Below are positions 5,004-51,054 of a stretch of DNA of 64,000 bases, piece after piece. Within the stretch, counting starts at the first letter, position 1, and each line of letters starts with the position of its first letter. Where the stretch lies: contig CAZFNL010000137.1 in NCBI GenBank assembly GCA_964520615.1, positions 148,898 through 212,897 on the forward strand. The letters are read 5' to 3'. The DNA is from an uncultured Gammaproteobacteria bacterium. GTDB lineage: Bacteria; Patescibacteriota; Microgenomatia; 2-02-FULL-39-11. A model generated the notes under the pieces. That model made no database searches and was not told the origin of the DNA. It was given only the letters and a program-made list of their open reading frames with translations. The position numbers were made by a program, and so were the translations under genes.

Positions 5004-5063
5004 TATTTGACATTTGCTGATAATTTCCTTTTTTTATCTCCCGACTATTCAATAAAATTATTC

Positions 5064-6056: not shown

Positions 6057-6118
6057 AACCAGTGATGCCAGTAATTAGCGCAACCTTTTTAGCTGATTTT
6101 TTCATAAATTCCTCCTTT

Positions 6119-36990: not shown

Positions 36991-37012
36991 TTTACCGATA
37001 AAATAATGGTAT

Positions 37013-37798
37013 TTGAAAATGCTCAAAAACCTATCCATAATAATCCCTGCCAGGAATGAAGAACATAACTTAGCCAAAATTATTCCTCTTATAGTCAAAA
37101 AATACCATCAGTACATACTCGAAATTATCATAGTAGACGATAACTCAACAGATGGTACATATTTAAGCGCGCGGGAGCTAAGGAAGCAATATAAAAAGAT
37201 AAAAATAGTCAGAAGAATACGAAATCCAGGAGTTGGTCTAGCAATAAAAGAGGGAATAAAAAATCTCTCTCCAAAATCGGAATATGTCCTTTTTATGGAT
37301 TGTGATTTTTTGACAAACGTTTCCGATATTGCCAAATTCATCAAAAAGATCGACGGCTTTGACGGTATTGCCGGTTCCAGATTTATTACCCGCGGCTCTC
37401 TCAAAAACTATCCATTCATAAAACTGCTTGCAAATCGCTCCTTCCACTTCCTATCCCACCTGATTATCGGTATTCCCCACTCTGATTTGACTAATAATTT
37501 CAAACTTTATAGAAAAAACCTTGTCGACAAGCTTTATCCAATTTTACGCAGCCCGAACTTTGCTATAAACGCTGAATTGGGATATTATCCTGTTATAGCA
37601 GGTGCCTCAATAGGACAAATTCCTGTAAGTTGGAAGGAAAGGACAGAACTTATGGGACTATCCAAATTCAAAATCTTTCGAGTAGGTCCCTCCTATTTTC
37701 TTGTTTTTCTAAGACTAATTGGTATGAAACTCCAACCGGCTATGATTAAAACAATCGCCGCACATCCTAAAAGTGATAGTTTACCCCCGAAAAAGTAA
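37013..37798 (+). CDS. Family 2 glycosyltransferase
   Basis: IIIPARNEEHNL...IIVDDNSTDGT. Its 3' end overlaps the convergent YfhO-like gene by about 106 bp. Confidence 0.75.
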   Translation: MKMLKNLSIIIPARNEEHNLAKIIPLIVKKYHQYILEIIIVDDNSTDGTYLSARELRKQYKKIKIVRRIRNPGVGLAIKEGIKNLSPKSEYVLFMDCDFLTNVSDIAKFIKKIDGFDGIAGSRFITRGSLKNYPFIKLLANRSFHFLSHLIIGIPHSDLTNNFKLYRKNLVDKLYPILRSPNFAINAELGYYPVIAGASIGQIPVSWKERTELMGLSKFKIFRVGPSYFLVFLRLIGMKLQPAMIKTIAAHPKSDSLPPKK

Positions 37799-39900
37799 AT
37801 ATCCGGCTGGTAATAAAATCTGACCGTATGTTTACCTGCTGGCAAATAAATTGCTCTGAAAGCAGTATTGATTAACAGAATCGGTACATTACTACCGTCA
37901 ATTGATGCCTTCCAACCGGGATAGTAGATTTCGCTTGTAGCAAGAATTCCGTTACACTTTGTCTCCGTGGTTAAAACTATTTTGCCTGGAGTATATACAT
38001 CATCATAGATATCAGCACTCGGATAGTTGCCGCAGTCATATACTGCCTTTTGCGGCAGTTTGCTTTGTTCATCTTTTGTTATATATACATTCCTGCGAAA
38101 ATCATCCGATTGGGCAGTAAGAAGTTTTTCTTTGACTGCCGCCGTATTTGTTAAAGCTACAAATCGTGATACAAGAAAAAAACGGGGTAAAACATTATTA
38201 TTCCTGTATATTACATATTTGTCTGAGGAAAGAAGTGTGGAAAATTTTACCGGGCGGCCGCTTTTTTGCCAGTTACGATCCGCTTCAGTCATAATAAATC
38301 CTATATTGAGGAAATCAAAAGCGGAAGAATACGGAGATAGAGGAGGAACTTCCACATTATAATACTCTTGGGACGAACTTCTGTTGCCATTGGCAATATC
38401 AATAAAATCGAAATAATTTCTCAAAATCATCGGGTCATAACCTGTAGTTGATTGTATTGTGTATTCTTCGGTCGAATTGAAATTTAATAATTTTTCCGGC
38501 GCACTTATCACTCCGAAGTCTGGCAGGAAACGTGTTATTTGAGTAGTGGATTTAAGTGTTTTTACCAGATTCTGATCATATTTAATCTCAGGAATATTAG
38601 TATTTATGAAAAATTGCCGGCTGAAGGGTAAAAGTTCTATAACAACCAATATCATAATCAACCAGCTAAACAGTTTATTTTTCACTGATGAAACTGCCAT
38701 ACCAAATATGAGCGGTAAGAGAAATGAAACCATGATAAGATGCTGGGTAGGAATACGAATATTTCTGTAAAAGGGAATTAGAGTATAAAATAAATGATGC
38801 AGGCTATACTTCAACTCCCCACCAGTAGACAACCATATAAAGATACATATCATAAAAAGGTAAAACCAAAAATCATGGTCAATATTGAGAATCTTTTTCC
38901 CAAACATATTCCCTGTAAATAATTTCAACAATTTTAAGATAATAAATACAATTGCTATCAGGAGCACTATCCGGCCGGGATAATAATCAAAAAAGTCCGG
39001 AAGAATAAATCCGGCAAAAGTGTAAGGAAATTTGGCCAACTCCGATACATTGTAAGGGTCTATGAACAACTTCAAAGCTGATGGAGGAAATGATCCCCAT
39101 GAAACCATAGAATAAGGCAATCCTCCACCTCTTATTGATAGATTGATAAACTGCAACGTAGGATACCACTGGATTGCCGTCAAGGCAGCTGCTACGGTAA
39201 ACGACAGGAAAACAAGTAAAAATTTACCTATTTTAATCCGGCGGTATAGCCATAAATCAATAACAAAAGTAAAAACCAAATATGCCGTTACCACCTCAAC
39301 AGTAAAAAGCACAATTGCGGTATACGATGCTAATATCTCCAAAGAGATACTTGCAACCAAAAAAAGGAAATTCTTCGTTGACGGATCTGAAAGCAGTTGA
39401 CGATCCGACCATAACACCCATGGAATCCAAACAGCTGTAGAGATAATATCCACATGCCCAGCGTAGACTCTTGCACCGATAAACCCGGATAGCATAAACG
39501 CGGCAGAAGCTGCAAGCGCGGATAATTCATCTGCTTTATACGAACGCAATAGCAAATACATTCCTAAACCGGCAATTAAAATATGAATGGCATAATTCAC
39601 TGAAAAGGCTATATTTAGAGGAAGGAGAACAAACAGCAAAGTCAGGGGATAAAATGCAGCTGTTGCAGGATGTGCCAGATATGGAGTCCCAGAAAAGTTA
39701 TAAGAATTCCAAAAAGGCACTGTTGCGCTTCGCAAGCTCTGAGCTAAATATCCTTTCCAGAAATAAAACTGGGTAAGTAGATCTCCACCGTATATCACTT
39801 TTCCTTCAGATGGAATTAAAGTTTGTCCGAATTGTAAAAGAATTAGCAGGAGAAGGAATAAAAGTGGTAAAAGTCTGAAAAGAAATGTGTTTTTCTTCAT
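37693..39900 (-). CDS. YfhO-family polytopic membrane protein (GT-C-like)
   Basis: 735 aa. The N-terminus GGDLLTQFYFWKGYLAQSL...FWNSYNFSGTPYLA matches the YfhO family start. It has about 14 TM and a C-terminal TM. Confidence 0.65.
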   Translation of the reverse strand: MKKNTFLFRLLPLLFLLLLILLQFGQTLIPSEGKVIYGGDLLTQFYFWKGYLAQSLRSATVPFWNSYNFSGTPYLAHPATAAFYPLTLLFVLLPLNIAFSVNYAIHILIAGLGMYLLLRSYKADELSALAASAAFMLSGFIGARVYAGHVDIISTAVWIPWVLWSDRQLLSDPSTKNFLFLVASISLEILASYTAIVLFTVEVVTAYLVFTFVIDLWLYRRIKIGKFLLVFLSFTVAAALTAIQWYPTLQFINLSIRGGGLPYSMVSWGSFPPSALKLFIDPYNVSELAKFPYTFAGFILPDFFDYYPGRIVLLIAIVFIILKLLKLFTGNMFGKKILNIDHDFWFYLFMICIFIWLSTGGELKYSLHHLFYTLIPFYRNIRIPTQHLIMVSFLLPLIFGMAVSSVKNKLFSWLIMILVVIELLPFSRQFFINTNIPEIKYDQNLVKTLKSTTQITRFLPDFGVISAPEKLLNFNSTEEYTIQSTTGYDPMILRNYFDFIDIANGNRSSSQEYYNVEVPPLSPYSSAFDFLNIGFIMTEADRNWQKSGRPVKFSTLLSSDKYVIYRNNNVLPRFFLVSRFVALTNTAAVKEKLLTAQSDDFRRNVYITKDEQSKLPQKAVYDCGNYPSADIYDDVYTPGKIVLTTETKCNGILATSEIYYPGWKASIDGSNVPILLINTAFRAIYLPAGKHTVRFYYQPDIYFFGGKLSLLGCAAIVLIIAGWSFIPISLRKTRK

Positions 39901-41270
39901 CTCTTGTTTAACTGATCTATTAAATCGTTTGCCTGTGCTGCCAGTTGCGGATCATCGGATATCATTTTCTTCTGGGCATCTGTCAACCACTGATTAGCTT
40001 GCATCCTTGCAAATATTATTTTAGCATTACTAAGCCTGGTATTTAATATATTTAATAGCTGGTCCAGTTTTGATTGGTTTACGGCTTCTGCACCCTTTGC
40101 GCTTTCCCACGACGGCAATACCTTCTCAATATTCTCAATAAGCGATTGCCAACTGCCAATTTCCTTCTGTGTATAGCTGGGAGGAACATATCCTCCAAGA
40201 TGAGCCACAATTACCTGCGTAGGACAACTGTTTATTTCTCCTAGAACGGGTGCAATACCTATATCCTGATATTCTGAAGAAAAAAGGATTTTCTTCGTAT
40301 CCGGAAACTCAAGAAAATTATCCACCAATTCTTGCGCATCATAATAACCACGGGTATAAACTTCGGCAAAGATAATATTCTCATAACCGGATTCCAATAT
40401 TGATTTTGCCAGAGTCATGCCGCTTCTTGTCGCTTCTGTCGAAAAATCATCAGTCCTTATCATGGCATCCCCCCTAATCTTACCGGAATTTGTCAAAAGG
40501 ACATTGTATTTCAAAGGTGCTATCCCGTCTGCTGCCTGTCTTTTTTCATTCAGAAGTTTTATAAACTCCGAAGCATCCAGTGTCGGAGTATTTGCCAAAA
40601 GCGCATCATCTTTTGTATCCCGCCAAAGTTTATGATAAGTCTCCTGATCGTTCCAAGGCAAAACAAAATGGATATCGGAAATATCGATAAGTCCCAATTC
40701 ATACCTTGAATCCAAGCTTGCTTTTCTATTGTCTCCCATGACAAACACGCGGCCAGCTGGAATTTTCAGGTTAGTACAGTCGGCTAAAAAATCGCCTCCA
40801 TAAGTGGATCTGGGTTTGGCTGTATAAGGTTCATCAATCCTCTCACCGTTTAAGTAAACAAAACCGTCACGCAAATCGATGGTATCACCGGGTAAAGCGA
40901 TAATCCTTTTTACAAAACCGGCGGTATCACCGTATTTCTCCTTTGAAATCCGGTCTGTCTTTTTATTCTCAAATTCCACGATATCCCCATGCTGGAGTTG
41001 GTAGGAAAAAAAATGAAAACCAAATATATTTATCCCTGAGGGATAAACTCTCATCTTTGGCCAGGCAACTGTTTCTTGAGCGCGGACTACGTCAGTTTTG
41101 CCGTTGCCTTTGGGAAAAGTCGGGTACATCGAACCTGTCCCTGCAATAAGTATCTCCTCCTTCACCACTCCTGACTGCAAAAGAAGTTGACGCGCATAAG
41201 GAGTAACATTTACCGAAATTGTCGCAACAATAATAACAAAGAGTATTGTGGTAATAATTTTTCGCAGCAT
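39897..41270 (-). CDS. lepB: Signal peptidase I (S26) with roughly 230-aa C-terminal extension
   Basis: GTGSMYPTF (Ser box), VKRIIALPGDT, and GDNRKASLDSR (box E). Confidence 0.8.
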   Translation of the reverse strand: MLRKIITTILFVIIVATISVNVTPYARQLLLQSGVVKEEILIAGTGSMYPTFPKGNGKTDVVRAQETVAWPKMRVYPSGINIFGFHFFSYQLQHGDIVEFENKKTDRISKEKYGDTAGFVKRIIALPGDTIDLRDGFVYLNGERIDEPYTAKPRSTYGGDFLADCTNLKIPAGRVFVMGDNRKASLDSRYELGLIDISDIHFVLPWNDQETYHKLWRDTKDDALLANTPTLDASEFIKLLNEKRQAADGIAPLKYNVLLTNSGKIRGDAMIRTDDFSTEATRSGMTLAKSILESGYENIIFAEVYTRGYYDAQELVDNFLEFPDTKKILFSSEYQDIGIAPVLGEINSCPTQVIVAHLGGYVPPSYTQKEIGSWQSLIENIEKVLPSWESAKGAEAVNQSKLDQLLNILNTRLSNAKIIFARMQANQWLTDAQKKMISDDPQLAAQANDLIDQLNKR

Positions 41271-41324
41271 GATTTTTCTGGTTTTAGTATATGAGAAAAA
41301 GTAAAAAAAGTGAACAACAAATAA

Positions 41325-41355
41325 GTCGTTAGTTTGTGGTTAGTCTTTGGTCGTT
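41325..41355 (+). repeat. GTTAGT/GGTTGG-like repeat copy in the lepB to giant-gene intergenic spacer
   Basis: gtcgttagtttgtggttagtctttggtcgtt. Confidence 0.35.
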
Positions 41356-41417
41356 ATTCTATCGTCTAATAATTCTTCTTACAACAGTCTTGAATCTGAA
41401 TTTGGTTTAACCTTACA

Positions 41418-44400
41418 CTATTCAATATTCTCTGTTATTTGTTCATCAAATTTCTTCGTCTCAGGATAAAATATCACAAATAATATGCCAAAACCCAACA
41501 ATATAAACCCTATATACTCCAGATATTGTGGTAAATAAACGATAATTATTGTCGCTTGTTGCTGATCGCTGGTCGCTGGTTGTTGAAGCTGCCAACCATT
41601 TTCCCAATTGTTTACCAAAACATGATTTTTCAACTCTGTCCCAAACCAGAACGGGAAAGCTTCTAAAAGAAAACCCTTAATTCCTGATTCTTTATTCTTT
41701 ATTCCTACGCTATACGCTTTCCATCCATCATCATAACTTTGTGAAAATGCTAAGATCGTGTTTTTTTCTACCATATTTGAATTAATTTGAACAGAGTAAT
41801 CTGAAATATTATTCTTAGTGAATTGCAGAATTATTTTATTTTCATTTTTCATTTCTGAGGTAGAAGAAGTCAAACTAATTTCCGTAAGGTATTTATAAGG
41901 TATTGGATCTAAAGAGATATCTTTTATTTCATTTACCGAGGGTATCTGATTGAAAGAGCTATCTGTAAATTGTATTCTAACTCCATCATCAAACTGATAA
42001 ATAGGCGGCAAAATATATCTTGAAATGTCGAAGTTTGTACTTCTCGACATAAGAGTATACACATAAGTGGTATCGTTTTTTACAGTAGTAGTCTTCAGAG
42101 TTAGCGGAAATCCGTTAATTAACTTAGTACTTATTGATAACAAATATCCTACGCCGGAAGGTAAATTATTTTGTTCAAATAAATAATTTAACAAATAATT
42201 TTTGGAATATAATAGTAGACTTTTATCATTGTCCGGATAAATATGTTCTGACAGGTAGAAGTCCCCATCAACAGGATTATATTCCCGAGGGTTCCTTCTA
42301 TACTGGTTGTCGTTTATAAGATTACTCCACTCATAACTTCCAGAGATTTTAGGTACATCCACTTTAATTATGGAATCTTTATCCAAGTTAAGTTTAAATC
42401 CTCTTACCGGATTGCTATTTATCGATGTCGTATCGAAATTAAACGATGATATATAAGGGTACGAAAAAACTTCTATATTTTGATAAGATATTGCTTTCTC
42501 TTCAAGTGCTGATTTATCATACCCCGGTTCAAGAATAAATGAAAAAGTATTCGTATTGTTTACTCCGCCGCTATTCTCAAAAAATTCATTATTCCTGAGA
42601 AAATTTGAGGAAAAACTCACTTTGTTATTATTTGACTGGTTTATACAATTACCTGAGGATAAATTTCTTAGGCAGAATTTTGGAAATTCATCGTATTTGG
42701 ATTTATAGATAAAGCTTACCCTATCCAAGCTTTTGGTCGGCAAGGTGGTTAATGGAAAGCTGTATGGTACACAAGTAGGAGTACCTTGCGCAGCTATTGT
42801 CAGTATGTTATCCGATACTTCTGCCGAGTTGAACTTGCCTGGCTTTCCCGAATCGCAATCAACCGCAGTACTGAATGCTTGCGGTTCCAAATCCTGAATC
42901 GTAGGATTGCTTCCCGAATATAGAGATACGGAATTACCAATTAGACTATTAATTAAATATGCATCACCAATAAACCCGTAATTATAAGAAGGGTTTATTA
43001 TGCTTAAAAAGTCCCTATTATTTATACTAAGTAAATAATAGTTCCCGCTAAATTGTACCGGAATAGGAATTGCGAATTGCTTGGATATAGGATTATTATT
43101 GACTTCCACATTGTCTACGTATACTTCCGGATTTTTCAATTGAAAGTTTAAAATTAAGCTGCCACCTTCTATCTTCGCGTAAATAGCAAAAGGCAAAATT
43201 TTTTCTTCATTTATTAAAGAGGGGATATTCAAATAATAATTACCTTTTGGTATTTCCTTCGTAAAACTGGTATCATTGGCTGTGTCCGAAACCGAAAATT
43301 TGACCTCATCCTGGAATCGATTTGTAAATAATGACTCAAAAGGATAAATGTAATCAATTTTTGGACTAGTTTTATCTTGATAATAATTTTCTACGGATCT
43401 ATACAAATTGTCCGTATTACTAAACCTTTCGGTCTTTGCGGTCTGGGGAATGTTATTGAAAAGGCTAAGTGTCCCGGATTCGGAATTATTATTTAGTTTA
43501 TATATGCTTACTGTGCCAAAATTAGCTACCTTAACAAATAGCGGATTATTGACCAGTAGCTCTTTCTGCTGATTTATCCATTTTAAGCTATTGTAATCAG
43601 ACGGAATATAACTTTCATCATACAATATATAAGTAATACCGTATTTTTTTATTGTTGAATTAAATAGACTTTGGTCTCTAGTTCTCAAATCATAAATTAA
43701 TTCCCAATAATACTGCTCCAGGTAATTACTCCAGACGTCAAAGGCTCTATCCATAATCGGCTGTTCTATTCCATACCAAAGAAATCCTGATCCTGTTAGT
43801 CCCCATTTATATGAACCCCATCCCCAATAAGTATCCTGAGGAAGATTCATTATTCTGGCGTTGGTGTCTCTTGTCTTAAAGTAATCAAATACCTGAAAAT
43901 AATAATCAGGAATTTTGATTCTTAACCGATCGGAGAATAAATGTCCGGTAAATACCGGTAATCCGTATATCAATACCATCAATAGGAACAGGAGGAATAT
44001 TGCTTTCTCTATTCTTGTTTTTGTTCGACCGATAAATTCGAAAATAACCGATAAACCAAATCCCAAAAGAAGCGTAAATACTACAGTTGTGGGGACAATG
44101 AATTTGGTAAATGGATTGCGGATTATCTGGTTTATAAGGGGTGCTTGCCGTAATAAAAAGTTAGCCGTGGAAATAATTGGAGTATCACTTAAAAAAACTA
44201 CCGCACTCAAGATCGACATTCCGGCAAAATATTTGCTCTTCTTTCCCCGCAACACTCCCAATAGCATCAAGAGAAAAAATATTATTCCTTCTATTCTAAC
44301 TGGTAAAAGTGAATAATAATCCCTCCATACCTGCATCATATAGACGGGTTTTCCAGGAGTCTGTGTATCATCCTGAGTATCCAGATTAAATCCTTTCAGA

Positions 44401-45251
44401 AATATAAAATCACTTATGTGGCCTCTTTTAAGATTCGTTTCAAAAAACCTGTCATTGTTCATTCTGTTATTCATGGCATTTTGAGTTACTGAAACACTGG
44501 TAAAAATAAAGTAAGCATTCGGAAGAAGCCAGAAGGAATTAATAAGGAAAATAGTTCCGGCAATCACAAAAATTTTCTTTAAAGTCAAAAAGCTCTTATT
44601 TGTGAAGAAATAAATCAGAAATATAATCGAAATAAAAAGCAAATATACAAGAAATATTGTTTCCACATACGCTTGAGGAATCGCTAGTATATTTACCAAG
44701 ACAAACCATATAAAAGCTTTTTTGTTTGGTTTACTTAAATAATTAAATAATCCCCATAACTCCCATGGAAAGAACCCCCAAAAAGTACTGAAAGGTTCAA
44801 AGGGAAAGAAAAAATTCTGTATGGTCCCCAGATTTAACAGATAGAATAAACTGCAAAGCAGCGCTATCTTTCTTACTGATGAGTCTTTTAATCTATCGCT
44901 AAGAAAGAATGTTACGAGTTTGTAGATTCCCAACACACCGATAATAAGCATCAGATATTGATAAAAATATCTTAAAAAGTTTACCGGAATAATTATTGAA
45001 AAAACCGACAATAATAATTGTCTTGGCAGGTCTGCAGCATGAGCCATTCCGCCAAGAAGTCCCAATCCCTGATATTCCTGCCAGACAGCAAAAATAGACC
45101 TGTTTATATTCATGGAAAAATTAAATTCAGGGTGCAAATTATCCCAACCGGCCAGCCATGTCCCCGGCTTATAGTTGGTAAAACAGATTACAGTAACAAC
45201 TGATATGAGGAATAATAAATAAAAAAAATGTTTATTCTTAATAATTGACAT
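41418..45251 (-). CDS. Giant (1277 aa) polytopic membrane protein, putative GT-C/AftD-like glycosyltransferase with large extracytoplasmic domain
   Basis: About 450-aa N-terminal multi-TM block, then about 750 aa of beta-rich Asn/Ser/Tyr-rich sequence, then a C-terminal TM. The architecture resembles DUF3367/AftD-type proteins. Confidence 0.4.
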   Translation of the reverse strand: MSIIKNKHFFYLLFLISVVTVICFTNYKPGTWLAGWDNLHPEFNFSMNINRSIFAVWQEYQGLGLLGGMAHAADLPRQLLLSVFSIIIPVNFLRYFYQYLMLIIGVLGIYKLVTFFLSDRLKDSSVRKIALLCSLFYLLNLGTIQNFFFPFEPFSTFWGFFPWELWGLFNYLSKPNKKAFIWFVLVNILAIPQAYVETIFLVYLLFISIIFLIYFFTNKSFLTLKKIFVIAGTIFLINSFWLLPNAYFIFTSVSVTQNAMNNRMNNDRFFETNLKRGHISDFIFLKGFNLDTQDDTQTPGKPVYMMQVWRDYYSLLPVRIEGIIFFLLMLLGVLRGKKSKYFAGMSILSAVVFLSDTPIISTANFLLRQAPLINQIIRNPFTKFIVPTTVVFTLLLGFGLSVIFEFIGRTKTRIEKAIFLLFLLMVLIYGLPVFTGHLFSDRLRIKIPDYYFQVFDYFKTRDTNARIMNLPQDTYWGWGSYKWGLTGSGFLWYGIEQPIMDRAFDVWSNYLEQYYWELIYDLRTRDQSLFNSTIKKYGITYILYDESYIPSDYNSLKWINQQKELLVNNPLFVKVANFGTVSIYKLNNNSESGTLSLFNNIPQTAKTERFSNTDNLYRSVENYYQDKTSPKIDYIYPFESLFTNRFQDEVKFSVSDTANDTSFTKEIPKGNYYLNIPSLINEEKILPFAIYAKIEGGSLILNFQLKNPEVYVDNVEVNNNPISKQFAIPIPVQFSGNYYLLSINNRDFLSIINPSYNYGFIGDAYLINSLIGNSVSLYSGSNPTIQDLEPQAFSTAVDCDSGKPGKFNSAEVSDNILTIAAQGTPTCVPYSFPLTTLPTKSLDRVSFIYKSKYDEFPKFCLRNLSSGNCINQSNNNKVSFSSNFLRNNEFFENSGGVNNTNTFSFILEPGYDKSALEEKAISYQNIEVFSYPYISSFNFDTTSINSNPVRGFKLNLDKDSIIKVDVPKISGSYEWSNLINDNQYRRNPREYNPVDGDFYLSEHIYPDNDKSLLLYSKNYLLNYLFEQNNLPSGVGYLLSISTKLINGFPLTLKTTTVKNDTTYVYTLMSRSTNFDISRYILPPIYQFDDGVRIQFTDSSFNQIPSVNEIKDISLDPIPYKYLTEISLTSSTSEMKNENKIILQFTKNNISDYSVQINSNMVEKNTILAFSQSYDDGWKAYSVGIKNKESGIKGFLLEAFPFWFGTELKNHVLVNNWENGWQLQQPATSDQQQATIIIVYLPQYLEYIGFILLGFGILFVIFYPETKKFDEQITENIE

Positions 45252-46725
45252 AGATTCCTTGATAAGGATCTAACGCTTTCAGTCCGGCGATAATCAATTT
45301 TTTTTGTTCAACCGGGATATAACCGCACTGATTTACAAGATTATTAAGTTCGCCTGATAAAACATATGCTTTGGTACAATATCCTCTGTATTTATAAAAC
45401 CCTGATGTCGGGTGATCCAGATCAGTCTGATTAGTCCTATCAACAAATATCTCCGGGGTTGGGGTATATAAGGAAGGAAAATTGTCCAAAATATACCCGG
45501 CATAGTAATTATTCCTCAACGAATTTCTGAAGTCCGGATTTACCCACCCGTTCATATTCATGGATAAAGTTTGCAAACCCAAGAGAATAAATAATGTAAT
45601 AGAAGTAATAATATTCAGCTTTCGTTCGTGAAGAAAATAAATAGCAAAAGCTATAAAAAGGGGAAGTATGTAAACAATATGTCTAGTAGGACCGTAACCT
45701 GCAGTACCATAATTCCACGCGGGATTAGTCTGGTAAAAAAAGGCAGTTATAAAATAAATTGCACTTAGAAATATGGCTTTATTGTCAATAATAATCCTTT
45801 TAATCAAATAATAAAATCCGGTCACAAGCGTAAACGGCGCGTACCAAAAAAGTCCCATATTCAAATCAAAAAACTGTTCATAAAGTTTCCGCAAACTAAT
45901 GTTCTGCAGCCCGAATCCGTTAATCTCAGTCCAGCCATTTTGTATATTTGTCCATGGAGTCAACAATCCAAACTGGATATAGCTCAGAAAATAAGGAATC
46001 AGTATAAGAATAAAAACTAGTAAAGGCCTGAATAACCATTCATACCTTCTGAAATTTATCTCCTGTACCGGATTCTTTCGATGCTTCAAAAGATAATCAG
46101 CTACCATATAAATGGTTAACGCAAAGGAAATAATAATTAACGGTTGGCTTTGCCAGGAAGAGAGAGCGGATAAAAAGGCAGAAAGAAAATACTCTTTATG
46201 TAAAAATGCAAATATACTGAGAAATATTAAGCAAATATAGTAAATCTCAGGACCCGGCCAGCCAAGAAAAAAAATCAGCGGGGAAAAGTATACAAGAAAT
46301 AACAAAAAAAGCCTTTCACCCGGCTCTTTCACATATTTTTTGAAAATAAAAATAAGCGCTGCCGCCAATATGATTATATTTGTCACGGGAAATGAAACCA
46401 GAGGATTTATACCAAATATTGAGAGAAGTATTCTGGAAGGAATAAGAAGGTAAGAGTAAAAAACAAAATGGACAGGATACCTGACGTTGTTTTTTCCTGT
46501 CATATAATACTGCGGATCTGAAAAGTAAGTTGCCGGCAAATATTTTTCTATCTCTACTTTATCGTTATTTCTTAGGGAAACATCTCCGTGATTGAGGATT
46601 GACACGGTCATCCCGTAATATTCCGCAACATCACCTGCTATCTGCGCTTTCGCAAAAACGATAAAATAGAATCCTAACAACAAAATTGATGCAATAAGAA
46701 TCAACCAGGGAATTTTCGCGGACAT
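45238..46725 (-). CDS. Polytopic membrane protein, function unknown (possible GT-C)
   Basis: 495 aa with about 12 TM. It overlaps the giant gene by 14 bp, so they are co-transcribed. Confidence 0.4.
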   Translation of the reverse strand: MSAKIPWLILIASILLLGFYFIVFAKAQIAGDVAEYYGMTVSILNHGDVSLRNNDKVEIEKYLPATYFSDPQYYMTGKNNVRYPVHFVFYSYLLIPSRILLSIFGINPLVSFPVTNIIILAAALIFIFKKYVKEPGERLFLLFLVYFSPLIFFLGWPGPEIYYICLIFLSIFAFLHKEYFLSAFLSALSSWQSQPLIIISFALTIYMVADYLLKHRKNPVQEINFRRYEWLFRPLLVFILILIPYFLSYIQFGLLTPWTNIQNGWTEINGFGLQNISLRKLYEQFFDLNMGLFWYAPFTLVTGFYYLIKRIIIDNKAIFLSAIYFITAFFYQTNPAWNYGTAGYGPTRHIVYILPLFIAFAIYFLHERKLNIITSITLFILLGLQTLSMNMNGWVNPDFRNSLRNNYYAGYILDNFPSLYTPTPEIFVDRTNQTDLDHPTSGFYKYRGYCTKAYVLSGELNNLVNQCGYIPVEQKKLIIAGLKALDPYQGIYVNY

Positions 46726-46729
46726 AGTC

Positions 46730-48055
46730 TCAATTTTGAGTATAACCTAGAGTCTGCGGTTTATGAAGAGAGAAGTGATCGTGCGGTGATATTATGCTGT
46801 CGAATATCATTGCCGTATTTCTATATGACCTCTTTTCCCTGATTATACCCGCCATTTTAGTCATTTTGCCTTTCAAACCATTCACCAGCACATTTTCAGC
46901 CGTTGACAAACATGATTTGCTATCAAGCGCAAAAACCATATCGGAAATCTTCAATCCGGACATCTCAAGAGCTTGACGAAAATCATCAGAATCAAACATA
47001 CTCTTCAACTCTTCAGAAATAATAAACGGTTTCCTGTAGGAAAAAACCAAGGATAGCACTCCTGAAGCTGTCATAAAATGCCTGTATGGCAGAACGATAA
47101 GGTCTGCCGCGGAAAAATAGGTCGCCAAGTCTTTTTGCGGTATATATCCGGTCACCTCAACTTTATGAGACCGGCCAGCATTATCCATGATTTTCCCGTA
47201 GTAATCGCGGTAATGCGGCCTGTCTATCATTGTCGGGCTTTCACCGCCCGCCAGTATAAACCTGGTTTTTTTGTTTAATACTTTTTGTACATTTCCGAAT
47301 GCCTCGACAAAGAAATCGGCTCCCTTAAACCAGTTGATATACCCGAAAAACATAACCACATATTCATCTTTCCCGATCCTGAGTTTTTTGCGTGACTCTT
47401 CCTTTTCCGGATTTTGTATTTCCGTATCGACTCCATGCGGGATAGTCAAGATCTTATTCTCATCAACAATTTTCCCTAAATTCTGCCTCAAGGCATCTTC
47501 AAGAACTACTGTTTTGTCTGATAAGCGGCCTGCCAGACGGTAGAATAGGTGAAATATCACATTGTATAAATTTCCCTTTATCCGGCCGGCAAAGTTATCC
47601 TTCAACCCGATATGCCCTTTAAGTTTGAAAGCATCCAATACGACGTGATGCATGACTACCGAAACCTGTCTTCCCAAAAGTTTCAGCACTCCCAGAAAAA
47701 AGATTACGGAGAAAGTAGGGATATTCCCCCCAAAAACGGCAAAATCAAACTGGATAAGTATGTTTTTGGCAGATGAGAAGAGTAATAATTTCTTCAGTAT
47801 TTGAAACCAGAGAAACGGATTATTTCTTTCAAAGCAGCGCAGGACAAGTACCCCTTTCTCTTCATAAATTTCTTCTTTTTTGCCACTTTTATCAGCAAGG
47901 ACCACTACCCGGTGCCGCATATGGGTCACGATGTTTTTGGCATATGAAGCCAATCCGGACGTGCCGGATGAGTAGAGCTCCCCTTTTTTGGGATATAAGG
48001 AAACCACAAGGAGAGTATCCCTGTGGTTATAAGCACGTATCAGTCTTTTCTTCAT
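46730..48055 (-). CDS. Glycosyltransferase, GT4-like
   Basis: 441 aa with two Rossmann-like halves. Assignment rests on the FGYINWFKGADFFVEAF and TGYIPQKDLATYFSAADLIVLPY patterns. Confidence 0.55.
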   Translation of the reverse strand: MKKRLIRAYNHRDTLLVVSLYPKKGELYSSGTSGLASYAKNIVTHMRHRVVVLADKSGKKEEIYEEKGVLVLRCFERNNPFLWFQILKKLLLFSSAKNILIQFDFAVFGGNIPTFSVIFFLGVLKLLGRQVSVVMHHVVLDAFKLKGHIGLKDNFAGRIKGNLYNVIFHLFYRLAGRLSDKTVVLEDALRQNLGKIVDENKILTIPHGVDTEIQNPEKEESRKKLRIGKDEYVVMFFGYINWFKGADFFVEAFGNVQKVLNKKTRFILAGGESPTMIDRPHYRDYYGKIMDNAGRSHKVEVTGYIPQKDLATYFSAADLIVLPYRHFMTASGVLSLVFSYRKPFIISEELKSMFDSDDFRQALEMSGLKISDMVFALDSKSCLSTAENVLVNGLKGKMTKMAGIIREKRSYRNTAMIFDSIISPHDHFSLHKPQTLGYTQN

Positions 48056-48347
48056 ATTTCAAAAATTACTTACTCTACTGTCATGCTGAACTTGTTTCAG
48101 CATCTCATCTCATAAAATATTTATTCTTCTGACCTCAAGTTTCCTTCAGATCAAAAGAACAACCAGAAACGCAAGAAAGAGAAAAAGTGTGACAAAAAGC
48201 CACGACTTGACAGCTTTCGCCGTCTTTCCCTTCCCTATTGGTTGTTTATAGTTTTGTGCCCCTGGCACTTCATCCGGGTGGTATTTTCCCAGAATGGTTG
48301 AACTACTCAACCTTTTTCTCCCCCGGGGAGAAGCGGAGTCGCCTGTA

Positions 48348-48388
48348 AAGGCGGCCCCGCTTGTTGTCCCTTTCGGGGGGGCCGCCTT
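48348..48388 (-). other. GC-rich stem-loop (11-bp perfect stem AAGGCGGCCCC/GGGGCCGCCTT) 25 nt downstream of the high-GC gene. No U-tract follows.
   Basis: Read directly from the sequence. The loop contains a nested ccc-ttt-cggg element. Confidence 0.4.
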
Positions 48389-48412
48389 GTGCGCGTTGCG
48401 ACGTTGCCGGAA

Positions 48413-48976
48413 CTAGTTGTTGGGGGCAATCGGGTGAAACCCGACGCCATCCGCAGAAAAGGTAGCGCCCGGCAAAGGGCACTGCACCGTTCGCGTAGTC
48501 CCATCCCAGCGATCGGATTTCTTCGGGATCTGCACCCAGCAGCCGCGCGCGTTTTGCGGTTCGGCGAATCCAGACCAATAGGTCAACATGCTGTTTTGAC
48601 CCGGGTGCTTAAAGGTAACCGGATGATCCGGGTCCCAATAACCCCACATGGTATGTTCGTCGTTACGCGACGTCCATTTTTCGGGTGAACCACCAATGTT
48701 GGTGCTGAGCCACTTCTGGGCATCAGCCACCGACATGGTATTCAAGCCCCACGGATCTGACTTCGCGACCGGCGCGACGGGCTGAACGGGCGCGACGGGC
48801 GCGGGCGGGTTGACGCTCTGAGTGATCGGCGCGGGTGTCCGCGGCCAGATCACATACGCCACCCCAGCTGTTACCACGCATCCCGCAACCAAGATCAAAA
48901 GGCATCCGCATTCCAAGCACCCGGTCAAAAGCTTGCCCCAATTGCGTTGGAGCCAGCCTTGCTGTTGCTCTTCCAT
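48413..48976 (-). CDS. Membrane-anchored hypothetical protein encoded in an anomalously high-GC segment
   Basis: Strong SD GGGAGG 5 nt before the ATG. N-terminal TM (LLILVAGCVVTAGVAYVIW), a PAPVAPVQPVAPV linker, and a 120-aa Trp-rich domain. Codon third positions are strongly G/C, unlike all neighbours. Confidence 0.5.
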   Translation of the reverse strand: MEEQQQGWLQRNWGKLLTGCLECGCLLILVAGCVVTAGVAYVIWPRTPAPITQSVNPPAPVAPVQPVAPVAKSDPWGLNTMSVADAQKWLSTNIGGSPEKWTSRNDEHTMWGYWDPDHPVTFKHPGQNSMLTYWSGFAEPQNARGCWVQIPKKSDRWDGTTRTVQCPLPGATFSADGVGFHPIAPNN

Positions 48977-48987
48977 TATTACCTCCC

Positions 48988-49009
48988 AAGCCGTTTGAGA
49001 AAACGGCTT
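48988..49009 (-). promoter_or_regulatory. 5'UTR stem-loop (9-bp stem, 4-nt loop) abutting the SD of the high-GC gene
   Basis: aagccgttt-gaga-aaacggctt. On the mRNA strand it ends 2 nt before GGGAGG. Confidence 0.4.
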
Positions 49010-49017
49010 GTGATTGT

Positions 49018-49033
49018 CCCAAAGGCCTTTGGG
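49018..49033. promoter_or_regulatory. Perfect 16-bp palindrome CCCAAAGGCCTTTGGG upstream of the high-GC gene
   Basis: It equals its own reverse complement exactly. It lies about 42-57 nt upstream of the ATG at 48976 on the transcribed strand. Confidence 0.45.
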
Positions 49034-49426
49034 GTCTTTGAGACACTAAGAACTTGACTTTGTCTGCCTCCCTCATCCGGCGCCGGAGCTACAGACACAA
49101 TGATCCCGGGATTGCAGAGAGCAAAAAGCCTCTCTGAATAGGCTAATATTTTTGACCTCCTCAGCCTATACTTTGATTAACCCCAAGATACCGGAAAACT
49201 GTAAATAAGAGCTATAAAAACTACCAACCAGTCTTATTCACATTTTTCCGGCATCAAGAGGATTTCCCTGAAAACTATGTCTGTAAATTTTAACAACCAA
49301 TTTTTTATTGCCCTTCTCCGGCAAAGCCGGATCAGGACAATTTTGCGTAATTCCAAAATTTACATTTTGGAAACGCAATATTGCGTTTCTGGTTTTTAAG
49401 GTGCGATTCCGATGAAACATCGGAAT

Positions 49427-49459
49427 AGTTGATAGTTAATAGTTTATGGTTGGCAGTTG
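49427..49459 (+). repeat. GTTAGT/GGTTGG degenerate repeat, copy (forward type)
   Basis: agttgatagttaatagtttatggttggcagttg, immediately after a 9-bp-stem hairpin at 49406-49426. Confidence 0.5.
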
Positions 49460-49771
49460 CACTTCACTGCGTTTGGTGTAAACAACTGCGCCAAAAACTA
49501 AAACTTCCAACTTTTCAGTCTTTGAGAGTCTGCAATCGCGATAGACTGCTTATCTTCCAGACTGACTCGGGCTTAAACCCAAGATGAAAAGAAATTGTTG
49601 TGGCGGGTTATGATCACACGTCACCCATAACCAATTTCCCTTCATCCTGGATATAATCTCTATTTAATTGTCAATACAGCTCTTACAAAAATATCCTCTC
49701 GCCTGTCGGAGGGGAGGAAACCTTTTACTCCATCCCGTTCCGGGCAGAACAAGAAAAGAGGACAAATTATT

Positions 49772-49848
49772 TTAGTTAGCAGTTGATGGTTGGCCGTTGA
49801 TGGTTCTTTTATTATGTTTCTAACTACTAACCACTAACTATTAACTAG
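49772..49848 (+). repeat. Pair of GTTAGT/GGTTGG repeat copies in inverted orientation (imperfect palindrome) abutting the stop of the gene at 49841..50509
   Basis: ttagttagcagttgatggttggccgttgatgg ... ctaactactaaccactaactattaactag. A 12-mer, tagttaatagtt, is shared with the copy at 49427. Confidence 0.5.
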
Positions 49849-50509
49849 TTACCGCTTTTTTTCTCAGATACAAACCTGATACAAGCGCTGATCCCAAACC
49901 GGCTAGTGACAATAACCAATGTTCGGGTCCGGCTTTAGGAGCGCTAGTGACAGTGATCTGTTTTTCTATACAAAACTGGCTTTCATCGTGGTCACTCTCT
50001 CCACCTGATGCGGCATCAACCGTATTTACCAAACAAACTACATTTTTATCAGACGGCAGGACTGCCGGGTGTACCGTCCTGACTTTTACTTCATACTGCT
50101 GGTCGGTACCTCCGGCAAGATTGTTTACCGTGAATGTTAAAACCCTTGAATTGCTATCATAACTGCCTGGACCCGACATAAAGTCCACATAGGACGGTAA
50201 AGCGTCTTTTACCGTGACGGTATCCAGTGTCTGGTCGCCGGAATTTTGTACATCGATATGGAAAGTGACTACCTGTTCAGGACGATATTTGGGGTCTGCC
50301 GGACCCAGGTTGTCCACAAAAACCCCTGTTGCAGGATTTTGTACAGTCTTGTTTACCAAAACCTGTCCGACCCGCGGACACTGTACTCCTCCACCGTAAA
50401 CTGGAGTACAACCTGTGCCGTATGCGCCGTCAGCAAAAATTGACTGGGGTAAAAATAAAGTTACCGAAAATAAGGTCAAAAAAAATACTGCCTGTTTCAG
50501 ACTTTTCAT
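49841..50509 (-). CDS. Secreted protein with C-terminal TM anchor and basic tail
   Basis: Signal peptide. VTFHIDVQNSGDQTLDTVTVKDALP resembles a DUF11-like repeat domain. C-terminus GPEHWLLSLAGLGSALVSGLYLRKKAVTS. Confidence 0.5.
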   Translation of the reverse strand: MKSLKQAVFFLTLFSVTLFLPQSIFADGAYGTGCTPVYGGGVQCPRVGQVLVNKTVQNPATGVFVDNLGPADPKYRPEQVVTFHIDVQNSGDQTLDTVTVKDALPSYVDFMSGPGSYDSNSRVLTFTVNNLAGGTDQQYEVKVRTVHPAVLPSDKNVVCLVNTVDAASGGESDHDESQFCIEKQITVTSAPKAGPEHWLLSLAGLGSALVSGLYLRKKAVTS

Positions 50510-50673: not shown

Positions 50674-51054
50674 ATGGGAAAGATTACAAAACTGGGTGAT
50701 ATTGAAGTCTATAAAGAGGCTTTAACCTTAACTTCAGAGATTTATGCGCTTACAAGGAGCTACAAATTAAGAAAGGATTTTGCGTTAGTCGATCAGGTAC
50801 GACGCGCATCAATTTCAATTGCGGCAAATATAGCAGAAGGGTATGGCAGGAAATCCAAAGGTGATTTCTGCCGATTTCTTTCCATATCCTTAGGTTCAGT
50901 AAATGAAGTCATCACATATCTTGATTTTATAAGCTTTGAATATAAACTCGATACAAAACTGCTAACTGAAAAATTCAATAAACTGGCCAGCAGAGTCGCT
51001 TCATTTCGCAAATATTTAACTACTAACTACAAACTACCAACTGCTAACCAATAA
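50674..51054 (+). CDS. Four-helix-bundle protein (23S rRNA intervening-sequence protein / Avd-like family)
   Basis: ALTLTSEIYALTRSY...QVRRASISIAANIAEGYGRKSKGDFCRFLSISLGSVNEV matches the TIGR02436/PF05635 signature closely. Confidence 0.8.
   Translation: MGKITKLGDIEVYKEALTLTSEIYALTRSYKLRKDFALVDQVRRASISIAANIAEGYGRKSKGDFCRFLSISLGSVNEVITYLDFISFEYKLDTKLLTEKFNKLASRVASFRKYLTTNYKLPTANQ
51017..51051 (+). repeat. Inverted copy of the GTTAGT/GGTTGG repeat forming the last 12 codons of the four-helix-bundle gene
   Basis: taactactaactacaaactaccaactgctaaccaa. Its reverse complement is ttggttagcagttggtagtttgtagttagtagtta (compare 49772 ttagttagcagttg). Confidence 0.45.

Follow-up and report, generated by a model that had tools for sequence, protein, structure and literature searches.

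The GC-rich island described here, located in a window of 64,000 nucleotides (the whole stretch of DNA that was analysed), is a single-gene cassette in a Patescibacteria (CPR) genome, where it heads a cell-envelope glycosylation operon. At its fixed locus the cassette behaves as an allele-exchange hot spot, and its high GC is not the fading remnant of a transfer; an active force maintains GC3 at ~0.6-0.75. Taken jointly, an old single acquisition, allele exchange at the same locus, actively maintained GC and a surface ligand-binding product form a reading which we consider moderately probable. Feature coordinates are collected in Table 1; related loci and contigs are referred to by L numbers.

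Table 1. Features of the GC-rich island and its downstream flank (positions in the window)
Feature	Position	Strand	Basis or remark
GC-rich island: gene plus ~110 nt of GC-rich UTR per side	~48250..49100	.	GC profile
CDS, 187 aa (P0001), membrane-anchored, C-terminal Trp-rich domain	48413..48976	-	ORF list, homologues, low dN/dS
N-terminal signal-anchor / TM helix, aa 16-44, R11 and K15 ahead	48845..48931	-	Kyte-Doolittle
Pro/Ala/Val-rich stalk, aa 45-72	48761..48844	-	Not alignable across lineages, P/A/T-rich in all
Conserved ~115-aa domain, aa 73-187, one helix and eight strands	48416..48760	-	Alignment, AF2
Shine-Dalgarno GGGAGG, 5 nt before ATG	48982..48987	-	TTGGAGG-like SD common to orthologues
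5'UTR hairpin AAGCCGTTT/AAACGGCTT	48988-49009	-	Inverted repeat
5'UTR hairpin GACCCCAAAGG/CCTTTGGGAC	49016-49036	-	Partly conserved in L001
Perfect 12-nt palindrome TCCGGCGCCGGA, 5' island edge	49076..49087	.	Not conserved in L001
3'UTR GC hairpin P1 AAGGCGGCCCC ... GGGGCCGCCTT	48348..48388	-	Conserved in L001, L002
3'UTR hairpin P2 AAGCGGGGCCGCC / GGCGACTCCGCTT	48331..48362	-	Pairing in window, L001, L002
Small palindromic hairpin CTTCTCCCCGGGGGAGAA, 3' island edge	48316-48333	-	Inverted repeat
Small palindromic hairpin GGTTGAGTAGTTCAACC, 3' island edge	48296-48312	-	Inverted repeat
52-nt block, 100% identical to L001, between island and GT4 start	48148..48199	-	Not GC-rich, flank
GT4 glycosyltransferase, first gene of the downstream envelope-glycosylation operon	46730..48055	-	Pfam; constant flank in all lineages

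Base composition

In 200-bp windows, GC content was 0.55-0.65 from ~48200 to ~49100 and 0.35-0.45 on either side, with all 1-kb bins elsewhere in the 64-kb window at or below 0.483. The top 800-bp window (start 48301) had a GC content of 0.588, compared to a mean of 0.394 (sd 0.037; z = 5.2) and a maximum of 0.501 outside the island, and the tetranucleotide distance of the island gave z = 8.6. By the sliding-GC and tetranucleotide checks proposed in the original prediction, the island is thus the compositional outlier it was claimed to be, and its description as a self-contained, compositionally foreign gene module is supported. The quoted GC of over 60% was slightly generous, applying to the peak 200-bp windows (62-65%) and not to the 187-aa ORF as a whole (59.6%); likewise, low GC does resume on both sides, but the drop takes ~100 bp each and not a few tens of bp.

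The reported G/C bias of third codon positions was borne out by a GC3 of 0.697 for 48413..48976(-), as compared to 0.382±0.048 (maximum 0.498) across the 53 remaining ORFs that reach 120 aa or more. GC enrichment extends into the UTRs, with 0.52 in the 120 nt 5' of the ATG and 0.62 in the 120 nt 3' of the stop. Amino-acid composition was ruled out as the source of the high GC, as GC3 and GC4 are both high here and the GC3 of relatives elsewhere is 0.35-0.56. The overlapping ORFs in other frames that had been named along with the gene are present in the ORF list; conservation at the protein level is that of the 187-aa frame.

The 187-aa protein

The minus-strand ORF is a real protein-coding gene of an undescribed family, genuine by its conservation and low dN/dS. 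Both the N-terminal TM helix and the PAPVAPV linker that had been read from it were found, with the hydrophobicity maximum at aa 25-43 (19-residue Kyte-Doolittle mean 2.58). In homologues, this N-terminal position is taken by a TM helix or a lipobox, and a P/T-rich linker is found family-wide. In the domain, 29 alignment columns are invariant; in domain numbering, these include the Cys pair C74/C94, W29, W39, Y41, W42, H52 and W62, as well as E67, N70, R90, D104 and H109. The domain has a dN/dS of ~0.06-0.08, similar to that of the flanks; raised dN/dS or diversifying selection was not seen on it, and only anchor and stalk are unalignable.

The AF2 model had a pLDDT of 93.6. No family for the Trp-rich domain emerged from scans of Pfam and NCBIfam or from searches of PDB sequences by single sequence and by profile. 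Among 5.8 billion proteins, 12 homologues were found, and with 52 cluster representatives among 1.84 billion the family, which carries no annotation, is very small; its fold is without a solved relative. In the literature searched, neither this protein family nor persistent GC islands in CPR were described.

The protein is predicted to be type-II (N-in, C-out) and membrane-anchored, with the domain held outside the cell on the Pro/Ala-rich stalk. Surface exposure is predicted because R/K residues precede the TM helix, a P/A stalk follows it, the Cys pair is invariant and homologues have lipobox variants; the Cys pair of the compact, Trp-rich beta domain is probably disulfide-bonded. The domain may bind a conserved extracellular ligand, such as a glycan, some component of the cell wall or a partner cell's surface, as suggested by the invariant aromatic and His/Glu/Asp/Arg residues and by the neighbourhood of glycosylation genes. 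Judged by architecture, with a fold that has no known relative, binding is the most likely function.

Signals and flanking non-coding DNA

The regulatory elements of the original prediction, namely the Shine-Dalgarno sequence at a spacing of five nucleotides, the palindrome, the 5'UTR hairpin and the downstream GC hairpin, were all recovered (Table 1). The arms of P1 are 11 nt long (48348-48358 / 48378-48388) and 100% complementary. For P2, 12 pairs, two of them compensatory, were 100% paired in the window, L001 and L002, compared to 31-53% in slid controls, which for these three sequences only is suggestive of conserved pairing. P1 and P2 are mutually exclusive, because P2 overlaps bases of the P1 3' arm. 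Common to most CPR cassettes are the 3'UTR motif CGGYARCGTC and a TTGGAGG SD. The 52-nt block, around which the genes are 80-88% identical to L001, is probably the promoter or leader of the GT4 operon. A 54-aa ORF crossing this block (48146..48310(-)) was rejected as a second module gene, being frame-broken in L001.

The locus across lineages

Over ~10 kb, the window is 81-86% identical at the nucleotide level to a Patescibacteria group bacterium MAG, which identifies the host as CPR. The genes neighbouring the cassette encode GT4, a weakly GT-C/AftD-like 1277-aa protein, an S26 peptidase, YfhO, GT2, PMT_2 and a DUF11/CLIPPER protein. The proposed search for the same module in other genomes yielded an orthologue at the same place upstream of GT4 in at least six independently assembled Patescibacteria lineages. 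In L001, L002/3, L005 and L006/7, the gene precedes those for GT4, for a membrane protein of 475-495 aa and for a protein of ~1250 aa, and in L009 it lies upstream of GT4; L017 was assigned to the locus by a homologous 3' spacer and an SH3-like upstream gene. The search covered lineages that carry the gene, and in every related one recovered (L001, L002/3/4, L005, L006/7/8, L009 and, as just described, L017) the gene occupies the same locus. In L008, an IS and a toxin-antitoxin pair lie upstream of the gene.

The GC island is present in every lineage. In L001, L002/3, L005, L006/7 and L009, gene GC is 0.57-0.65 (flanks 0.34-0.39) and GC3 is 0.58-0.73; over all seven CPR copies, GC3 is 0.58-0.77, compared to 0.29-0.46 in their neighbours. 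These seven CPR loci with DNA fall into three or four lineage groups, with GT4 identities of 55-61% between the three main ones.

These data bear on the original interpretation of a recent transfer from a high-GC donor, too young to have ameliorated, which we now regard as highly improbable. It would account for the atypical composition, for relatives in another phylum and for the mobile element and toxin-antitoxin pair beside the L008 gene, but a syntenic orthologue with its GC island occurs in at least six lineages, with flanking GT4 proteins only 55-60% identical between the three main groups, synonymous sites are saturated between copies, and the window's island has none of the expected marks of entry: a tRNA/tmRNA search of the 64-kb window found none, and no integrase and no convincing direct or inverted repeats or target-site duplications were found at or bracketing the island.

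An assembly chimera or contaminant, as had also been considered, or a GC-rich structured RNA with a spurious ORF, is a practically negligible alternative. The compositional change is sharp, and high GC does yield long spurious ORFs; however, assemblies of different samples, made with different pipelines (NCBI MAGs, Logan assemblies and metagenome records), repeat the same junctions, which answers the question of a chimera. As for a structured RNA, Rfam returned no match in the window at gathering score (only sub-threshold noise with E<1 in 47900-49900), and the protein has strong conservation, low dN/dS and a confidently predicted fold.

Allele divergence and exchange

Between L005 and L006, the flanks are mostly 85-100% identical at the nucleotide level (73% in one 100-nt window), compared to 49-73% in the cassette. 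The corresponding dS values are 0.20-0.26 for the flanks and 2.2 for the cassette, which thus diverges ~10 times faster; dS and dN are both up ~7-10-fold, with dN/dS unchanged. Between the window and L001, dS is 2.3 for the cassette and 0.87-1.39 for the flanks. The flanks of L009 are of the L005/L006 type, with a spacer closely matching L006 and a GT4 5' end ~89-90% identical, yet its allele groups with the window subfamily and joins the L005/L006 alleles in 5 of 100 bootstraps. It is this combination of ~10-fold faster cassette divergence and conflict between allele and flank trees which marks the locus as an allele-exchange hot spot: conserved flanks carry cassettes of much deeper divergence, and the allele of L009 comes from another subfamily than that of its closest genomic relatives.

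A parallel rise of dS and dN at unchanged dN/dS would also result if a mutagenic or repair process acted on the ~0.8-kb tract, raising its rate and pushing AT to GC. Such locus-specific, GC-biased hypermutation would fit the fairly sharp compositional edges and the GC enrichment of UTRs and unconstrained stalk as well, but we hold it to be very unlikely. The presence of an other-subfamily allele in L005/L006-type flanks in L009 indicates replacement and not mutation in place, 4-fold sites have a strand asymmetry like that of the flanks, and we know of no bacterial mechanism that fits. In a search for a DGR, no island segment was repeated elsewhere in the window, as a template copy would be, and no reverse transcriptase was found there, a single FIDD being the only Y/F-x-DD match within a long ORF.

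Life attached to hosts is generally ascribed to CPR bacteria. Each CPR lineage, or each allele class, could have replaced its copy recently from an unsampled high-GC reservoir, such as host bacteria, and if this happened repeatedly no maintenance of GC would be needed. Replacement of the cassette faster than its flanks, the incongruence of alleles with flanks and the occurrence of the family in high-GC organisms would all be expected from such re-import. Even so, it is distinctly unlikely: the CPR-type sequences all cluster together, the clade members with DNA or gene context (8 of 10) are all in a CPR-type context, identity over the domain reaches only ~45-63% with the nearest proteins from outside CPR, and the 3'UTR motif and SD sequence common to most CPR cassettes point the same way. 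With its 52 cluster representatives, the family also offers little of a reservoir; searches for phage, plasmid and viral-contig copies found none, and a JGI metagenome scan gave no family contig beyond one already recovered.

Maintenance of high GC

Identity at 4-fold sites between CPR copies is 0.18-0.48, near chance, and G<->C changes are common there; of the seven CPR copies, six nevertheless have a GC4 of ~0.6-0.8, and that of L002, whose genome has the lowest GC, is 0.4-0.57. In a two-state relaxation model, GC3 would have fallen to at most 0.37-0.42 at a flank-scaled dS of 4 and to 0.44-0.55 at a dS of 2, where the dS of the deep splits is extrapolated, as direct estimates saturate. As synonymous sites are saturated and GC is still high, neutral amelioration is rejected. 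Parts that are non-coding or unconstrained are enriched as well, with a GC of 0.50-0.62 in the 3'UTR and a GC3 of 0.64-0.82 in the unalignable stalk.

As the candidate force, GC-biased fixation tied to frequent recombination at the locus (gBGC-like) is most likely. GC3 is raised in the recombining tract and GC in the adjoining non-coding DNA, as expected under gBGC. The GC3 excess of the cassette amounts to +0.25 to +0.40 over 0.8 kb; an effect of bacterial gBGC would by our own expectation be far smaller, and gBGC alone may be insufficient. An association of recombination with GC3 in bacteria has been described (Lassalle et al. 2015; PMC4450053). Our best reading is that either recombination-linked bias or selection keeps the GC of the cassette high.

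Selection on the nucleic acid by itself, with recombination incidental, is an unlikely explanation of the composition. It could act through a very stable or strongly structured mRNA, through rare GC-ending codons that slow the translation of a secreted, disulfide-bonded domain, or through a DNA-level barrier before the GT4 operon. The cassette is GC-rich in every lineage whichever allele is present, the 3'UTR hairpins are conserved with two compensatory pairs, and for three lineages the island RNA gave better folds than its dinucleotide shuffles (z = -3.35, -5.20 and -2.27; 0 of 20 shuffles as good). These z-scores are modest, however, being obtained with 20 shuffles and mostly carried by the UTR hairpins, and conservation of RNA pairing is known from those hairpins and not from the coding region. 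The family also works at a GC3 of 0.35-0.56 elsewhere (L015, L013, L010), so that GC-rich codons are not needed by the protein, and the ~ten-fold higher dS would be left unexplained.

With considerable doubt, we put forward a bolder reading, in which a locus-specific process of this Patescibacteria clade, either unusually strong recombination-linked GC-biased conversion or a targeted GC-biased mutator, would hold the 0.8-kb cassette at a GC3 of ~0.7 in genomes with a GC3 of ~0.35, and would have done so over a period in which synonymous sites were saturated many times. The product of the cassette would then serve host recognition or attachment, would stem from Chloroflexota-like partners and would have a fold without counterpart among solved structures.

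Origin of the gene

Outside the Patescibacteria clade, relatives were found only in Litorilinea aerophila (Chloroflexota) and on uniformly high-GC contigs, including L014 (0.625) and L010 (0.595). The Litorilinea copy is itself atypical, with a GC of 0.50 within a region otherwise at ~0.6-0.67. In an NJ tree, all ten CPR-type proteins formed one clade nested among non-CPR members, which suggests one old cross-phylum acquisition by the CPR clade; as the bootstrap for CPR monophyly is only 64%, a second entry is possible. By this reading, a high-GC bacterium, plausibly of Chloroflexota type, would have passed the gene to the ancestor of the CPR clade in a single ancient event, where the assignment of the donor phylum rests on one named genome. 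The distant high-GC origin envisaged originally is therefore plausible, although nothing points to an actinobacterium or a proteobacterium, the examples given.

Discussion

Where GC is atypical, contamination or a recent transfer is routinely assumed; in this case the signal belongs to an old, syntenic gene with fast turnover. The cassette is a concrete counter-example to the amelioration clock and could serve as a natural system in which to test biased gene conversion or base-composition selection in bacteria. CPR bacteria are poorly understood symbionts that depend on their cell surface, and a conserved, rapidly exchanged, predicted surface protein, also found in Chloroflexota, whose gene heads an envelope-glycosylation operon and whose fold lacks a solved relative, is a reasonable candidate for a cell-cell interaction factor.

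Several known systems resemble the cassette in part. Lawrence and Ochman, in 1997, are said to have recognised horizontally acquired genes by their atypical composition and to have described its amelioration. Like such compositional islands, the cassette is an outlier in GC, GC3 and tetranucleotides, has its nearest outside relatives in another phylum, and comes as a self-contained module, SD and hairpins included. Unlike them, it keeps to a single locus in lineages of deep divergence, in a window without mobility genes, tRNA or direct repeats, and its synonymous turnover has proceeded without the GC3 decay that amelioration predicts.

It resembles integron gene cassettes in consisting of one short ORF with a palindromic GC-rich element behind it, in its non-host composition and in being replaceable at a fixed site, but it has its own 5'UTR and SD and is single and not arrayed. 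Around the 3' element, which consists of simple hairpins, no attC-type RYYYAAC/GTTRRRY core pair was seen by eye, and no IntI integrase or tyrosine recombinase was present among the genes examined in the window or related loci.

Bacterial gBGC (PMC4450053) is similar in that GC3 is higher where recombination is frequent, with a weaker spread into non-coding DNA; the 25-40 GC3 points gained over 0.8 kb here are, by the expectation given above, seemingly far more than gBGC would give. Membrane-anchored surface proteins of Chloroflexota with a PT linker, such as a trio of paralogues in Litorilinea aerophila (L013, 3240-6408), are a protein-level counterpart, with the same C-terminal domain (42% identity) and the same succession of anchor, P/T-rich linker and globular domain. 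The Litorilinea protein differs by an extra PKD-like domain (weak Pfam match), and its gene lies in a lower-GC patch of a high-GC genome, with no adjoining glycosyltransferases.

Hypervariable surface loci, such as those for O-antigen, capsule, pilin and adhesin alleles, are exchanged by homologous recombination in conserved flanks. The cassette differs from these in being one small gene, in being GC-rich and not AT-rich as is usual, and in having a domain dN/dS of ~0.07, with its excess divergence mostly synonymous or in the stalk. It resembles them in its divergent alleles within conserved flanks, in an allele tree incongruent with the flank tree, and in a predicted surface product encoded next to envelope-glycosylation genes.

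Composition of the island

In 200-bp windows, GC content was 0.55-0.65 over approximately 48200-49100 and 0.35-0.45 on both sides, while the maximum of any 1-kb bin elsewhere in the 64-kb window was 0.483. The best 800-bp window had a GC content of 0.588 against a mean of 0.394 (sd 0.037; z=5.2), the tetranucleotide distance of the island reached z=8.6, and GC3 of the island ORF was 0.697, compared to 0.382±0.048 (maximum 0.498) in the other 53 ORFs of at least 120 aa. These values bear out the single sharp GC-rich patch of the original prediction. Its "over 60%" GC was slightly high, the mean being closer to 59%, and the compositional change at the edges of the patch fades over ~100 bp. The minus-strand ORF with its GGGAGG-N5-ATG ribosome-binding site, the hydrophobic N-terminal helix and PAPVAPV stalk of its product, the perfect palindrome and the 5' and 3' hairpins were all found where claimed. 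Coordinates are listed in the table.

Coordinates of features in the window and in related loci (handles beginning with L)
Feature	Sequence	Position	Remarks
Envelope-glycosylation run	window	35416-48055	downstream of cassette; PMT_2, GT2, YfhO, S26 signal peptidase, 1277-aa protein, 495-aa protein, GT4
GT4 glycosyltransferase gene	window	46730..48055(-)	first of operon
54-aa ORF	window	48146..48310(-)	overlaps T-rich block; rejected as a gene, frame-broken in L001
T-rich block, 52 nt	window	48148-48199(-)	between island and GT4 start
Helix P2	window	48331-48362	3'UTR; 12 pairs, 100% paired in three sequences
Hairpin P1	window	48348-48388	3'UTR; conserved in L001 and L002
Island ORF, 187 aa	window	48413..48976(-)	
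865-nt stretch	window	48977-49840	between island gene and DUF11/CLIPPER gene; no credible ORF
Long inverted repeat	window	49187-49210/49232-49255	within 865-nt stretch
Strong palindrome, then T-run	window	49367-49392	within 865-nt stretch
Long inverted repeat	window	49433-49458/49822-49847	865-nt stretch
23S rRNA intervening-sequence protein gene	window	50674-51054(+)	free-standing; four-helix-bundle family PF05635, E=9e-28
Non-coding cassette-GT4 spacer, ~430 nt	L005	8643-9071	
	L006	1213-1638	
	L009	1323-1779	
Gene for SH3-like domain and TM helix	L005	7597-7998	immediately upstream of domain gene
	L017	3-362	immediately upstream of domain gene
P0006, domain protein	L009	396-1322	fused to N-terminal SH3-like domain
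IS-type integrase (rve), DUF433/DUF5615 toxin-antitoxin pair	L008	133-1873	directly upstream of cassette
Three tandem membrane-anchored paralogues	L013, Litorilinea aerophila	3240-6408	common PKD-like N-terminal domain, different C-terminal domains

The protein and its family

Only 12 homologues of the 187-aa protein were found among 5.8 billion clustered proteins, and a profile of its Trp-rich C-terminal domain (aa 73-187) matched 52 cluster representatives among 1.84 billion; Pfam and NCBIfam gave no match for the domain. All family members share one architecture, in which an N-terminal transmembrane helix or lipoprotein signal is followed by a non-alignable Pro/Thr/Ala-rich linker and a C-terminal domain of ~110-115 aa. 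The domain has 29 invariant columns, including a Cys pair, several Trp/Tyr/Phe, and His, Glu, Asn, Arg and Asp, and its dN/dS of ~0.06-0.08 places the reading frame under purifying selection. An AlphaFold2 model, built on an alignment of 12 sequences, comprises one helix and eight strands (mean pLDDT 93.6, pTM 0.85). The ORF is a real, conserved gene, and its membrane-anchored product represents an undescribed family. From the positive charges ahead of the helix, the stalk and Cys pair, and the lipobox variants of relatives, the domain is predicted to lie outside the cell, where it may bind a conserved ligand such as a glycan, a component of the cell wall or the surface of a partner cell.

An SH3-like domain occurs either fused to the domain protein or encoded by a separate neighbouring gene, a Rosetta-stone style link between both proteins. 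The separate upstream genes are likewise raised in GC (0.50-0.6).

A conserved locus in Patescibacteria

Within a clade of Patescibacteria (CPR), the cassette always occupies the same place, heading an envelope-glycosylation operon. Directly downstream of it, homologous loci carry GT4, a polytopic membrane protein of 475-495 aa and a protein of ~1250 aa, then S26 signal peptidase and YfhO; the opposite flank is a DUF11/CLIPPER gene, a 23S-IVP gene or FtsZ, depending on the locus. In the window, the 1277-aa protein has a weak AftD/GT-C match, and neither it nor the 495-aa protein has a confident family assignment. The window is 81-86% identical over ~10 kb to L012, from a Patescibacteria MAG of the same species as L001. 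The GT4 gene downstream of the L009 cassette is partial, L017 has the same 3' spacer as related loci, and the locus of the homologous protein P0025 shares the gene order MFS / CLIPPER / gap / gene / glycosyltransferase.

Seven CPR loci from three or four lineage groups were available as DNA. In every one of them, GC was 0.565-0.67 in the cassette gene versus 0.34-0.39 in the remaining locus, and GC3 was 0.58-0.77 versus 0.29-0.46 in adjoining genes; the cassette thus forms a GC island in each lineage examined. GT4 proteins are 86% identical between the window and L001 and 95% between L005 and L006, but just 55-61% between the three groups, which makes the cassette older than this deep split and contradicts the recent arrival originally proposed. 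The alternative that the island is an assembly chimera also falls, as the same junctions recur in loci from different samples and assemblers and are therefore physical.

The content upstream of the cassette varies, with a 23S-IVP gene in L002, FtsZ, an 82-aa ORF and the SH3-like gene in L005, and DUF11 and a long spacer in the window, which marks the region before the GT4 operon as a plasticity zone. A homologue of the window's 23S rRNA intervening-sequence protein adjoins the cassette in L002, L003 and L004, and another lies a few genes off at the P0025 locus.

Cassette turnover

The downstream operons of L005 and L006 are mostly 85-100% identical at the nucleotide level (one 100-nt window, 73%), whereas their cassettes are only 49-73% identical, with the transition lying within ~250 nt past the stop codon; L006 lacks the extra upstream SH3-like gene of L005. 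Between the two loci, the domain has dS=2.2 and dN=0.17, compared to dS=0.26 and dN=0.025 for GT4 and dS=0.20 and dN=0.032 for the membrane protein. Between the window and L001, domain dS is 2.3 versus 0.87-1.39 in three flanking genes, and the N-terminal third of the protein is practically unalignable. The clearest incongruence is seen in L009, whose spacer closely matches that of L006 and whose GT4 5' end is ~89-90% identical to L005 and L006, while its SH3-fused allele is of the window-type subfamily and joins the L005/L006 alleles in 5/100 bootstraps. Divergence of the cassette far exceeds that of its flanks, with which one allele is incongruent; this points to cross-lineage allele exchange within conserved flanks or to the persistence of very old alleles. 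As dN/dS is not raised, the excess divergence does not reflect classical positive selection on the domain.

Origin

In a collection of species-representative genomes, the family occurred in just two, a Patescibacteria MAG and Litorilinea aerophila (Chloroflexota, 42% identity). Distant members reside on uniformly high-GC contigs (L014, 0.625; L010, 0.595) or mid-GC contigs (L015/L016, 0.46-0.47; L011, 0.49), and outside CPR gene GC equals or falls below that of the surroundings. A neighbour-joining tree of 48 domains groups the ten CPR-type proteins in a single clade nested within the other members, with a moderate bootstrap of 64% and a sister group including the protein of high-GC L014. The simplest history would be a single ancient cross-phylum acquisition from a high-GC bacterium by the ancestor of the clade; Chloroflexota are a plausible donor, based on one named genome. 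In Litorilinea aerophila, the third of the tandem paralogues bears this domain. All three occupy a patch lower in GC (0.47-0.53) than the surrounding genome (~0.6-0.67), so the family is compositionally atypical in Chloroflexota too, in the opposite direction.

Maintenance of high GC

Identity between CPR copies at 4-fold degenerate sites was 0.18-0.48, roughly that of two random draws from the observed composition. Six of the seven copies nevertheless had a GC4 of ~0.6-0.8, and L002, the lowest-GC genome, one of 0.4-0.57. G<->C differences in the cassette were about as frequent as compositional stationarity predicts; the flanks show mostly W<->S and A<->T differences. A two-state relaxation model toward a host GC3 of ~0.35 predicts a GC3 of 0.37-0.42 at the flank-scaled dS of ~4 for the deep groups (deep dS values being saturated and partly extrapolated), and of 0.44-0.55 at dS=2 from a start of 0.75-0.95; the observed range is 0.58-0.77. 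As the cassette's substitution rate exceeds that of its flanks, neutral decay should have been even faster. Synonymous sites are saturated without amelioration, and some non-neutral force keeps the tract GC-rich. The amino-acid sequence does not impose high GC, since GC3 of non-CPR members is 0.35-0.69. The enrichment extends to non-coding sequence and to unconstrained segments: the 3'UTRs of CPR cassettes have a GC of 0.50-0.62, and the unalignable anchor and stalk, still rich in Pro, Ala and Thr, have a GC3 of 0.64-0.82.

We infer that recombination-linked biased fixation maintains the GC content. For bacteria, PMC4450053 reports an association of recombination with GC3. Effect size is the main weakness of this GC-biased gene conversion idea. 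Selection on the nucleic acid itself is a live rival, modestly favoured by island transcripts folding more stably than shuffled sequences (z = -3.35, -5.20 and -2.27), although the UTR hairpins supply much of this signal. Biased fixation has two further live rivals: recurrent import from a high-GC reservoir not yet sampled, and a GC-biased mutator acting locally.

Regulatory elements and spacers

P2 reuses the 3' arm of P1, so the two are mutually exclusive. Two compensatory changes in P2, with 31-53% pairing in slid controls, are suggestive, coming from three sequences only; a terminator/antiterminator-like switch preceding the GT4 operon is speculative. The island had no match in Rfam.

The T-rich block is 100% identical to L001, with the genes around it just 80-88% identical, and probably serves the GT4 operon as promoter or leader. 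The cassette-GT4 spacer is highly conserved among L005, L006 and L009 despite radically different cassettes, its GT4-proximal ~200 nt being identical in L005 and L006. With its long potential stems, it could act as a structured leader RNA for the operon. The 865-nt stretch without a credible ORF is atypical of compact CPR genomes. Its conservation with L001 is 60-70%, and Rfam gave no match.

Comparison with known systems

Neither an integron cassette, a DGR target nor a known RNA fits the island, and its protein belongs to no named family. With compositional HGT islands the cassette has only its composition in common; it fails the tests for recency, for mobility signatures and for amelioration. 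It behaves like a hypervariable surface locus exchanged by recombination, except that it is GC-rich, consists of a single gene and has a dN/dS that is not raised.
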